Shown here: one piece after another, positions 11,205 to 13,145 of the stretch
How the letters are laid out: every line of letters starts with the position of its first letter
Position numbering within the stretch: the stretch's first letter is position 1
Origin: Escherichia phage UFJF_EcSW4
DNA: 40,299 nucleotides
Sequence record: PP856269
Direction: 5' to 3' (one strand)
Translations under genes and position numbers: made by a program
Notes under the pieces: model-generated
Database searches by the model: none
Seen by the model: only the letters and a program-made list of their open reading frames with translations
Told to the model about the DNA's origin: nothing

Positions 11205-11254
11205 GGACCATGAGTCCTGTCCCTTTGTTCGCATTTGTGACTAAGGAGTGACCG

Positions 11255-11434
11255 ATGGTTACAGTTATTCTAGTTCTAACGCTTATCAGTGGTAGTGGGC
11301 AAACTATCAGCCAAGTACCTATAACAGCACCAACATTACAGGACGCATTCACAATATGTGACCAGTCCGGCTCAAAGTGGGCCGACAAGTTTGGCGATGT
11401 CTCAAACGTTGCAGCAGGGTATGAGTGTATTTAA
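11255..11434 (+). CDS. Possible small protein, 59 aa, hydrophobic N-terminus
   Basis: MVTVILVLTLISGSG...; preceded by TAAGGAGTGACCG ATG, almost the same 13-nt SD context that precedes the primase gene at 11445. Confidence 0.35.
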   Translation: MVTVILVLTLISGSGQTISQVPITAPTLQDAFTICDQSGSKWADKFGDVSNVAAGYECI

Positions 11435-11444
11435 GGAGTGACCA

Positions 11445-13145
11445 ATGTCATACGATGATCAAGACGACGAGAGTGTCTTTCTGTATCACACCCAGTGTCC
11501 AGACTGTGGGTCCTCGGATGCCAATGGTGTTTACTCAGATGGACACATGTACTGCTTCGCCTGTGACCCTTCAGTCGCATGGAAGAAAGGAGACATGGAG
11601 TTGACCGAGGGATACACACCCTCAGGAGGTAGAAAGCAAGTGAGCAATCTGTTAACGTTCGGTGAGAACGCTGGACGATATGTCCCACTACCAGCCCGTA
11701 GTCTAAGCATGGAGATATGCAAGAAGTACAGCTACTGGGTGGGTAACATGGGTGGCAAGATGGTTCAGGTCGCTGATTATTACGACAGGTCCGGGACCAA
11801 GGTAGGACAGAAAGTCCGAGACGCTGAGAAGAACTTCACGGCTATAGGTAGCGTCAAGTCTGACATGCTGTTCGGCTCTCAGCTCTGGAACGGTGGCAAG
11901 AAGATAGTCATCACCGAGGGTGAGATAGACGCTCTGTCTGTGGCTCAGGTGCAGGACGGGAAGTATCCTGTGGTCTCGCTTCCGTTAGGCTCCAAGTCTG
12001 CGAAGAAAGCGATGGCTGCGAACCTTGAGTATCTCGACCAGTTCGAAGAGATAATCTTGATGTTCGACATGGATGAACCGGGTCGTCAGGCCATTGAAGA
12101 TGCAGCTCCAGTATTACCAGCAGGTCGGGTCAAGGTTGCATTCATTAACGGGTACAAAGACGCCAACGCTGCGCTTCAGGCCAAGGACTTCAAGGCCATC
12201 ACCGATGCAATCTGGAACGCTAAACCTTTCGTCCCGGCTGGCGTGGTATCAGCGGCAAGTCTGAAGGACCGCACACGAGAGGCAATGCTTAAGGCAGAGA
12301 CTGAAGGTCTCATGTTCTCGTCATGCACAACACTCAACGCGATGACACTAGGTGCGCGAGCTGGTGAGCTTATCATGGTGACTTCTGGGTCAGGCATGGG
12401 TAAGTCTACCTTCGTCCGTCAGCTCCTCCTAGAGTGGGGCAGAGGTGGTAAGCGTGTGGGAATGGCTATGCTTGAAGAGGCTGTAGAGGAAACAGTTCAG
12501 GACCTTATGGGTCTGGACAATAACGTCCGTCTACGCCAGAGCAAGGAACTGAAGCAAGCCATCTTAGAGGATGGACGGTTCGACGAATGGTATGACAAGC
12601 TGTTCGGAGACGATAAGTTCCACCTGTACGATTCATTTGCAGAGTCAGAAGAAGACACCTTGTTCGCTAAGTTATCCTACATGGTGGACGGTCTTGACTG
12701 TGACGTCATACTGCTGGACCACATCTCAATAGTGGTGTCTGGCATGGAAGATAACTCGGATGAACGTAAGACCATTGACCGCATCATGACTCGTCTCAAG
12801 AAGTTTGCGAAGACGAAGGGTGTGGTTGTAGTGGTAATATGTCACCTGAAGAACCCAGAGAAAGGTAAATCACATGAAGAAGGCCGACCTGTTTCAATCA
12901 CTGACCTGCGTGGCTCTGGTGCTCTACGCCAACTATCTGATACTATCATCGCACTTGAACGTAACCAGCAAGGTGATACTCCTAACATTGTTCAGCTTCG
13001 TCTACTCAAGTGTCGCTTTACAGGTGATACTGGAGGGGCTGGACACCTTGAATACAACAAAACGACAGGGTGGCTTGAACCGATTAGCTTCACTGGCAGC
13101 AGCGGAGAAGAGGATAGCGGCTCGTGGGAAAACAACGACTTCTAG
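11445..13145 (+). CDS. 4: Bifunctional DNA primase/helicase
   Basis: 566 aa; zinc ribbon CPDCGSSD...CFAC, TOPRIM block [16 protein letters not shown], Walker [12 protein letters not shown], and the arginine-finger block [31 protein letters not shown] match T7 gp4A. Confidence 0.97.

Follow-up and report, generated by a model that had tools for sequence, protein, structure and literature searches.

A 59-aa ORF just upstream of the primase-helicase gene of Escherichia phage UFJF_EcSW4 (ORF59) is best explained, with a probability of roughly 80%, as an accessory gene in a cargo slot, the two copies of a 16-nt repeat that bound it being the joints of its loss. The slot lies between a class-II-type phage promoter, followed by a 5' hairpin leader, and gene 4, the essential primase-helicase gene, and is hypervariable in its cargo. 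The duplicated initiation region gives both cistrons the same strong Shine-Dalgarno sequence (SD) and marks the recombination joints of a cassette that is gained and lost. We found no description of this slot in the literature. The window, that is the whole stretch of DNA analysed (PP856269, 40,299 nt), is a complete Kayfunavirus genome, K1F-like and T7-like. The features concerned are as follows.

10971-11186, plus strand: gene 4.3 homologue, 71 aa (annotated gp3.7 in K1F and EcoDS1); PHROG 1950, E 1.1e-25.
11186-11202, plus strand: phage-RNAP promoter, AACTATCACCTTAGGGA, differing at 2 positions from the consensus of this genome, AACTATCACTATAGGGA.
11199-11223, plus strand: 5' leader hairpin, GGGAUGGGAC / GUCCUGUCCC, 10 pairs and a 5-nt loop.
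11242-11257, plus strand: repeat copy 1, made of SD TAAGGAG, spacer TGACCG and the ATG of ORF59.
11255-11434, plus strand: ORF59, 59-aa accessory gene (PHROG 6794), first cistron of the proposed promoter-gene 4 unit.
11258-11447, plus strand: presence/absence unit of 190 bp, comprising the body of ORF59 and a single repeat copy; within the repeat its register is not fixable.
11432-11447, plus strand: repeat copy 2, whose leading TAA is the ORF59 stop codon and whose ATG is the gene 4 start.
11445-13145, plus strand: gene 4, T7-type primase-helicase, 566 aa, second cistron; record annotations agree.

Of 17 positions, the promoter shares 15 with the consensus. The genome has 11 consensus-like sites, this one included, all on the plus strand, against 0.08 expected, and the EcoDS1 record has a promoter annotated at the orthologous position. 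Transcripts would start near 11199. The leader hairpin, which resembles the stem-loop at the 5' end of late T7 transcripts, is present in the RNA-fold centroid; among 15 distinct leaders, 98% of the cells are paired, with one compensatory G-C to A-U change. Scanning revealed no sigma-70-like site on the plus strand and no promoter within the 190-bp unit, and an Rfam search of the region returned a chance-level match only. A terminator scan ahead of gene 4 gave a single match, a stem of 6 pairs (11248-11262) that spans the start codon of ORF59, where 0.8 are expected by chance. Since a phage promoter precedes ORF59 and no convincing terminator separates it from gene 4, the two genes would most naturally be co-transcribed from 11186-11202. 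Each would be translated from its own copy of the repeat (SD TAAGGAG, 6-nt spacer, ATG); the ORF59 stop TAA doubles as the first three bases of the gene 4 SD, 10 nt ahead of the gene 4 ATG. Given a joint transcript and the same initiation region, both proteins should appear simultaneously, and their initiation signals are similar; the duplicated signal suggests equal translation initiation of ORF59 and gene 4. The second cistron, a primase-helicase gene in the initial annotation too, encodes a primase-helicase of T7 type, and the gene 4 ortholog of a relative (L030) carries the Helic-prim_T7_N, Toprim and DnaB_C domains.

The repeat pair, TAAGGAGTGACC(G/A)ATG, was recovered where the initial annotation had placed it, at 11242-11257 and 11432-11447 with 190 nt from start to start. 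Its length had been miscounted as a 13-nt context: with 12 identical bases, a variable one and the ATG, it spans 16 nt, of which 15 are identical (copy 1, TAAGGAGTGACCGATG; copy 2, TAAGGAGTGACCAATG). The motif has only two matches in the 40,299 bp, both strands counted, even when 2 mismatches are allowed; shuffled sequences give 0.06 expected matches, and two or more in 0 of 100 shuffles. Copy 1 varies among relatives, ending in CCAATG in vB_EcoP_F and L029 and reading TAAGGAGCGACCAATG in L030. Among the relatives examined, copy 2 is identical wherever it starts gene 4 with the usual 5' end, with the exception of one base in L013. In three HNH-occupied states, copy 2 is absent from L026 and from the remnant in L016/L025, and starts the HNH gene in L004. 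We considered a "TGATG" junction of a donor as the origin of the G at position -1 in copy 1, and dropped this because vB_EcoP_F and L029 carry A there.

Comparison with relatives shows that the copies are recombination joints, which bears out the suggestion of duplication or recombination at the gene 4 start. Sixteen of about 180 Kayfunavirus records carry ORF59. Most records lack exactly the 190 bp and keep a single copy of the repeat, the commonest state in nature, so that the slot measures 86 nt when empty and 276 nt in ORF59 carriers. In a BLAST comparison with the empty genome ZCEC02, the two matching segments overlap in the subject by exactly 16 nt (9237-9252). Because relatives without ORF59 miss precisely the 190 bases from repeat to repeat, ORF59 behaves as an ordinary optional gene cassette. 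The same slot also holds other cargo. IMEP24 and P762 have an unrelated 58-aa ORF (ORF58) there, flanked by the same 16-nt repeats, and we found no relatives of it beyond these two carriers. A tRNA-Thr occupies the slot in 34 records, with a different joint (TTAAG/.../CTAAGGAG, just 4-5 nt repeated), and HNH endonuclease genes or their remnants occupy it in some Kayfunavirus genomes. An HNH_3 domain is found only in this alternative occupant of other genomes; ORF59 has no nuclease domain. IMG/VR and the metagenome collection contributed no further cargo types, adding only empty and tRNA states.

Natural variants thus show the 16-nt copies to be the joints of cassette loss, and probably also of its gain or exchange. 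Direct-repeat recombination or replication slippage would remove exactly 190 bp and leave an intact promoter, leader, RBS and gene 4, and recombination with a carrier genome could restore or swap the cassette. As the cassette carries a duplicate of the RBS and start of the downstream gene, its loss restores the original arrangement exactly. T7 also loses DNA that is flanked by short direct repeats (Pierce & Masker 1989, Mol Gen Genet 217:215, via PMC5449768). In T7 deletions of this kind, such as Studier's deletion mutants, a non-essential segment has short direct repeats at its ends, as it does here, and the natural variants described above have likewise lost exactly one repeat and the intervening DNA. 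A difference is that the repeat here is a complete 16-nt translation-initiation region, and that the same joints bound alternative cargo. Because the repeat is a complete functional initiation region, loss is scarless with respect to expression. The slot is thus a clean natural example of how phages of the T7 group add and drop small accessory genes with the essential gene undisturbed. For phage engineering, the site just upstream of gene 4 is a tolerated natural insertion point with a strong RBS ready, and an insert flanked by the 16-nt repeats is likely to be unstable.

Cassette and flanks have had different histories. Between this genome and L029 the flanks are 94-99% identical (dS 0.06-0.12), whereas the cassette is 79% identical (dS ~1.4), and the drop falls exactly at the repeats. 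In a tree of the flanks (555 nt), carriers and empty genomes are interspersed, and the nearest flank neighbour of the carrier vB_EcoP_F is an empty genome. ZCEC02 and this genome differ by two further small-ORF indels, with SD-containing repeats at both ends. ORF59 follows a 4.3 homologue in every genus that has it, and two deeply diverged alleles occupy the same slot; this favours an old residence. On balance these patterns make old residence with recurrent loss somewhat the better bet, ahead of a recent insertion, which we regard as a serious but less probable course of events. The empty state could nevertheless be the pre-insertion state, and the 16-nt perfect duplication, which exceeds the 4-7 nt microhomologies of other indels in these genomes, could mean a duplication-generating insertion rather than a simple deletion.

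The length of the duplication also agrees with an actively mobile mini-cassette, an alternative that we consider unlikely. Here the ORF and one RBS copy would excise as a circle and reinsert at the gene 4 RBS of other genomes, regenerating the duplication, or double-strand breaks made by HNH enzymes would drive the movement. The unrelated ORF59 and ORF58 share identical 16-nt flanks, an HNH gene starts at the second, downstream copy in 216Ecol046PP, homology has TAAGGAG as its exact left limit and ATG as its exact right limit, HNH genes and remnants lie at the very same site, and the discordant histories of cassette and flanks would be expected. Mini-circles are documented for the PeSL cassettes of T4-like phages (PMC2839356). 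Against mobility, no recombinase, inverted repeats or other mobility signature is present in or beside the cassette, and 16 bp offers very little length for single-crossover integration to be efficient. The tRNA joint is different, the HNH insertions come without duplication, and ORF59 adjoins gene 4.3 homologues only and is never found in scattered locations. Nor does the cassette resemble a transposon, its ends being without inverted repeats and its sole ORF encoding a 59-aa protein with no Pfam domain.

Known phage cassettes resemble the arrangement in part. The PeSL (promoter-early stem-loop) cassettes of T4-like phages are similar in that non-essential small ORFs, whose function is unknown, lie in a hyperplastic region and are flanked by a repeated regulatory motif (Arbiol et al. 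2010, PMC2839356; PMC4122927). The PeSL is a sigma-70 early promoter with a terminator stem-loop, present in many copies (PMC2839356; PMC4122927), whereas the element described here is a 16-nt unit of SD, spacer and ATG in two copies, and the phage promoter and hairpin are single-copy. As with PeSLs, the indels and replacements that distinguish close relatives have their end points in the repeated regulatory motif. ORF59 is also moron-like: it lies between two conserved genes, is present in some close relatives and precisely absent from others, and deviates slightly in composition. Classical morons of lambdoid and other tailed phages, in the concept of Hendrix and Juhala, bring their own promoter and terminator. 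In contrast, ORF59 has no promoter of its own and relies on the resident one; all that it brings is an RBS copy, with no credible terminator, and it shows old synteny with gene 4.3 rather than a clear foreign origin. In some Kayfunavirus genomes the same slot, directly ahead of gene 4, is taken by free-standing HNH homing endonuclease genes of the T7 gp3.8 type. These insertions take the single RBS and ATG and give gene 4 a new start, so that the RBS is not duplicated; unlike such cassettes, ORF59 encodes no HNH, GIY-YIG or LAGLIDADG domain (no Pfam match).

A broader scheme, which we hold improbable to much the same degree as the mobile mini-cassette, likens the site to an integron without an integrase. 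Promoterless cassettes (ORF59, ORF58, HNH, tRNA), bounded by a fixed initiation module, would be excised, swapped or put back at the gene 4 RBS by way of the repeats; minicircles and HNH cleavage might help, and ORF59, partnered with gp4.3, would be a counter-defence factor. If so, any ORF placed behind the module (stop codons, SD, spacer, ATG) would be expressed, and gene 4 would keep its own copy.

Very improbable is the view that both genes evolved an optimal initiation region independently, the repeat having no role in recombination. TAAGGAG is indeed the usual strong SD here: the plus strand of the genome has 14 copies, and at least 12 precede ORF starts. TGAC resembles an extended anti-SD complement (compare TAAGGAGGTGAC at 19658 and 37537), so TAAGGAG, and perhaps TGAC, may be favoured in any strong SD. 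The TGACC spacer and the equal spacing are all that sets the pair at 11242 and 11432 apart from other SDs, and because TAAGGAG is common genome-wide, it is the comparative data and not the within-genome count that make the pair meaningful. No other SD-context pair in the whole genome has a spacer in common. The natural deletion end points fall exactly within the two copies, a second cargo has the same 16-nt flanks, and allele identity falls from 95-99% to 79% exactly at the repeats; on these comparative data convergence is already contradicted.

We therefore return to ORF59 as an accessory gene in a cargo slot, and to the protein that it encodes. The initial annotation offered the first copy as the possible mark of a small gene, and comparison with relatives shows that the small ORF is conserved: residues 1-59 align to positions 1-60 of the 62 in the PHROG 6794 profile (E 1.5e-23). 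A tblastn search with ORF59 gave 75 phage records, of which 16 are Kayfunavirus at 100% amino acid identity and the others, at 38-71%, are other Studiervirinae (Berlinvirus, Przondovirus and an unclassified Citrobacter phage). Between this genome and the divergent allele in the same slot of L029, 37 of 180 nt differ (pS 0.63, pN 0.076), and the resulting omega of ~0.06 indicates strong purifying selection. The least credible reading, that ORF59 is a non-functional, decaying remnant of a duplicated gene 4 start region, would suit a short gene that is missing from most relatives and has no known domain, and is already contradicted by this omega, by near-saturated synonymous change with the frame intact in both alleles, by full-length homologues in other genera, by the lack of similarity to gp4, and by a compact AlphaFold2 fold with pLDDT 74 from just 4 sequences. 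Judged from these comparisons, ORF59 is a real, dispensable accessory gene. It merits calling as a gene in annotation, and its absence from relatives is a real polymorphism and no assembly error.

The AlphaFold2 model of ORF59 has a beta-beta-alpha-beta arrangement, the value of 74 being its mean pLDDT. Residues invariant in the family are G15, C35, W42, C58 and V21-P22, and the composition is slightly deviant (GC 44% against 50%, GC3 38%). The N-terminus is hydrophobic, as first noted (residues 1-12, MVTVILVLTLIS). The depositor of the phage Pipis record reports a TMHMM transmembrane segment there, in disagreement with AlphaFold2, which predicts a beta-strand at residues 4-11. The sequence does not look like a lipoprotein or a secreted peptide: the first cysteine is residue 35, the N-terminus has no basic residue, and the hydrophobic run is just 12 residues. 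Pfam and PADLOC searches with ORF59 gave no match; Foldseek with the model gave uncharacterised phage proteins alone in BFVD, and none below E 0.7 in the PDB. The top phmmer matches among 1.84 billion representatives were giant repetitive proteins (P0004, with 46 stretches, P0005, P0007 and P0008), which we set aside as artefacts: their scores sum weak repeat matches, and the same proteins also "match" unrelated Pfam families such as CoV_NSP8. The real relatives in that search were P0001 and P0006 only, both 59 aa, and in IMG/VR the gene occurs on two contigs only.

A 4.3 homologue is the upstream neighbour of ORF59 in every genus examined. By BLASTP the 71-aa upstream gene is 33% identical to BA14 gp4.3 (E 8e-6) and 46% identical to the kpssk3 homologue (E 1e-7), and the ORF59 homologue directly follows gene 4.3 in BA14, kpssk3, vB_Kp1, pO103 and YSYH. 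The 59-60-aa gene between 4.3 and 4.5 of Berlinvirus and Przondovirus (BA14 AS7_0023, kpssk3 gp19, vB_Kp1 gp27; PHROG 6794) is homologous to ORF59 over the full length (38-71% identity), with both cysteines invariant and always directly after 4.3. Its place, unlike that of ORF59, is downstream of gene 4, where it either abuts the 4.3 stop or overlaps it (TGATG or TAAATG). This suggests translational coupling, and its junction with 4.3 has no intervening promoter and no duplicated RBS. Here the pair is upstream of gene 4, with 68 nt of promoter and leader between the two genes. The conserved pairing marks a two-gene accessory module, a candidate for host takeover or counter-defence, and our best guess for the ORF59 protein is a small soluble or membrane-associated factor of this kind that belongs with the 4.3/4.5 accessory module. 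T7 gp4.3 and gp4.5 are themselves candidate RADAR counters (PMC11482910).

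The sequence is a complete T7-group genome (40299 bp, terminal repeats present), and its nearest relatives are Kayfunavirus (K1F-like) coliphages, 96-98% identical around the locus of gene 4 and of the 59-aa accessory gene ORF59. The initial annotation had described one translation-initiation context standing before both genes. This duplication is real: a genome-wide search of both strands, allowing up to 2 mismatches, recovered these two copies and nothing else, with 0.06 expected. TAAGGAG by itself is the standard Shine-Dalgarno (SD) sequence of the window, found 14 times on the plus strand and in at least 12 cases ahead of an ORF start; what sets the pair apart is only the common TGACC spacer and the equal spacing. 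The locus contains:

10971-11186, plus strand, 71-aa gene (PHROG 1950), gp4.3 homologue
11186-11202, plus strand, phage promoter AACTATCACCTTAGGGA, matching the window's own consensus AACTATCACTATAGGGA
11199-11223, plus strand, 10-bp hairpin at the start of the predicted transcript (RNA fold)
11242-11257, plus strand, repeat copy 1, TAAGGAGTGACCGATG
11255-11434, plus strand, ORF59, 59 codons, opened by the ATG of copy 1
11432-11447, plus strand, repeat copy 2, TAAGGAGTGACCAATG
11445-13145, plus strand, gene 4 (primase-helicase), 566 codons, opened by the ATG of copy 2

The 71-aa protein shares 33% identity with BA14 gp4.3 (E 8e-6) and 46% with the corresponding protein of Klebsiella phage kpssk3. 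The stop codon of its gene overlaps the promoter, whose consensus matches 11 plus-strand sites in the window against 0.08 expected; the EcoDS1 record annotates a promoter at the orthologous site. Over 15 distinct leaders, 98% of cells in the hairpin are paired, variation lies mostly in the loop, and one compensatory change (G-C to A-U) is seen in the LM33_P1 group. Downstream follow copy 1, ORF59, copy 2 and gene 4, and the ORF59 stop TAA forms the first three bases of the gene 4 SD. A terminator scan between the promoter and gene 4 gave nothing convincing: its lone match, a weak stem of 6 pairs that spans the ORF59 start codon (11248-11262), is at chance level, with 0.8 such matches expected. 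From this anatomy we infer that ORF59 and gene 4 form a single class-II transcription unit with identical initiation signals. The 11248-11262 hairpin (GTGACC-GAT-GGTTAC) pairs the copy 1 spacer with ORF59 codons 2-3, enclosing the start codon, and cannot form at copy 2; it may make initiation at ORF59 weaker than at gene 4.

ORF59 has a full-length match to PHROG 6794 (E 1.5e-23), and tblastn finds it in 75 phage records. The small ORF, whose conservation had been in question, is present at 100% amino-acid identity in 16 Kayfunavirus records, at 71% in kpssk3-type Przondovirus, at ~55% in Berlinvirus BA14/285P/FE44 and Citrobacter phage YSYH, and at 38-44% in other Klebsiella phages. In the same slot, metagenomic contig L029 has a diverged allele with 88% protein identity; 37/180 nt differ, with pS 0.63, pN 0.076 and omega ~0.06. 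G15, V21, P22, C35, W42 and C58 are invariant across the family. Judged by its sequence conservation, ORF59 is a real gene, belonging to an already annotated hypothetical family. AlphaFold2, given only four sequences, predicts a compact beta-hairpin/helix/strand fold (mean pLDDT 74), in which the hydrophobic N-terminus is modelled as a core beta-strand; the depositor of phage Pipis instead annotates a TMHMM transmembrane segment. The hydrophobic run spans only 12 residues, without a charged n-region or lipobox. Domain, defence-system and fold searches returned no match giving a function.

Across some 182 Kayfunavirus records we compared the slot before gene 4. Records that lack ORF59 match the window in two blocks covering 611 rather than 801 bases, with a single repeat copy and a clean absence of 190 bp. 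When the whole genome is compared by BLAST with that of ZCEC02, the overlap of the two segments is exactly the 16 nt of the repeat. On these alignments the two 16-nt repeats are the indel joints. The earlier reading of the first copy, as the mark of a small co-regulated gene or a remnant of duplication or recombination at the gene 4 start, is supported. At least seven slot states are distinct:

empty, no size change: the majority, including K1F and EcoDS1
ORF59, +190 bp: 16 records plus the window, L029 and comparison locus L030
58-aa ORF, unrelated, flanked by the same pair of 16-nt repeats, +180 bp: IMEP24, P762
tRNA-Thr(CGU), joint TTAAG/.../CTAAGGAG, +88 bp: 34 records
gp3.8-like HNH gene using the RBS and ATG, with a new start for gene 4: BDX03P1 and others
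internally deleted HNH remnant, +128 bp: JSS1
ORF59 followed by an HNH gene starting from copy 2: 216Ecol046PP

In some genomes homology to the window begins only near the RBS; LM33_P1 lacks the gene 4.3 homologue, and PRF-SP4 lacks both this gene and the promoter. The tRNA-Thr (anticodon CGU; 34 INPHARED Kayfunavirus records) sits inside the gene 4 SD region, for example at 1780-1858 of locus L018 and in loci L023, L024, L045 and L046, and is mostly unannotated or called 'tRNA-OTHER'. The gp4.3-like gene seems to carry a frameshift in or close to an A-rich stretch, both in EcoDS1 (L028 573-668; annotated gp3.7, only 32 aa) and in one metagenomic contig (L042); this accessory gene can therefore be dispensed with as well.

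Aligned to L029, the window shows 94-99% identity in the flanks (dS 0.06-0.12) and only 79% in the cassette (dS ~1.4), the shift falling at the repeats. Among carriers of the common allele, cassette divergence about equals that of the flanks (0-3%). A neighbour-joining tree built on 555 nt of flanking sequence intermixes carriers and empties, and the nearest neighbour of the carrier vB_EcoP_F by its flanks is an empty genome. ORF59 presence therefore does not track local phylogeny, indicating that it was repeatedly lost or gained, or that recombination took place. The homologue in each of the other lineages examined lies directly after gene 4.3, ahead of 4.5 and on the downstream side of gene 4, abutting or overlapping the 4.3 stop codon. 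In Kayfunavirus the 4.3 homologue has moved upstream of gene 4, and ORF59, where it occurs, still follows as the next gene downstream. The retained adjacency and the two deep alleles somewhat favour an old resident that was lost recurrently through the repeats over a recent insertion.

In T7, stretches lying between short direct repeats are known to be deleted (Pierce & Masker 1989, as cited in PMC5449768), and 16-nt repeats 190 bp apart would be a good substrate for such deletion. The product would be a fully functional promoter-leader-RBS-gene 4 unit, which would account for an empty state that is both frequent and scarless. Exchange by a more active route, either HNH-stimulated or by way of mini-circles such as those described for the PeSL cassettes in T4-like phages (PMC2839356), seems unlikely. 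Other indels in these genomes show microhomology of only 4-7 nt.

Comparison with ZCEC02 shows that the pattern of the ORF59 slot recurs elsewhere in the window; HNH genes also vary between close relatives:

23728-23817, 29-aa hydrophobic mini-ORF MVLIYTGLALFVLFWAYLLSSSPSSAYDR preceding gene 11, with a TTAAGGAG...CTATG context on either side
3485-3715 of ZCEC02 (L050), additional 76-aa ORF behind the RNA polymerase gene, with an AGGAG...TATG context on either side
13421-13852, HNH gene before gene 5
9391-9840, candidate HNH ORF before gene 3, assigned from position only
18768-19160 of Vec13 (L051), HNH gene before gene 8

Within 23715-23832, TTAAGGAGGGACTATG starts the mini-ORF and TTAAGGAGTAAAACCTATG then starts gene 11 at 23830; ZCEC02 has one RBS and no mini-ORF there, and Vec13 has the mini-ORF. 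Where ZCEC02 carries the 76-aa ORF, the window has a single hybrid-looking RBS (~5500-5520). The free-standing HNH genes are variably present among close relatives; at the junctions read, before genes 5 and 8, they were inserted without RBS duplication and often overlap the start of the neighbouring gene.

Together, the locus combines an annotated hypothetical family, a standard T7-type transcription unit and a hyperplastic slot in which a cassette bounded by repeats is gained and lost. Its behaviour is closest to T7 direct-repeat deletions, morons and PeSL cassettes. As in PeSL cassettes, the indels end in a repeated regulatory motif; unlike PeSLs and morons, the cassette lacks their promoter/terminator features, because the repeated element is a translation-initiation region. 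The finding is useful for annotation and for choosing insertion sites in phage engineering, and draws attention to the conserved accessory pairing of ORF59 with 4.3. For T7, a preprint (PMC11482910) lists gp4.3 and gp4.5 as candidate counters of RADAR.

Two further repeats were seen. Each end of the genome carries two tandem copies of a 127-nt unit (21-274 and 40034-40287), forming direct terminal repeats with internal duplication. A 13-nt exact match, GCATGGAAGAAAG (26 nt at 77% when extended; 11577-11602 versus 13296-13321), joins the internal gene 4B start region with the intergenic stretch after gene 4, possibly by chance.
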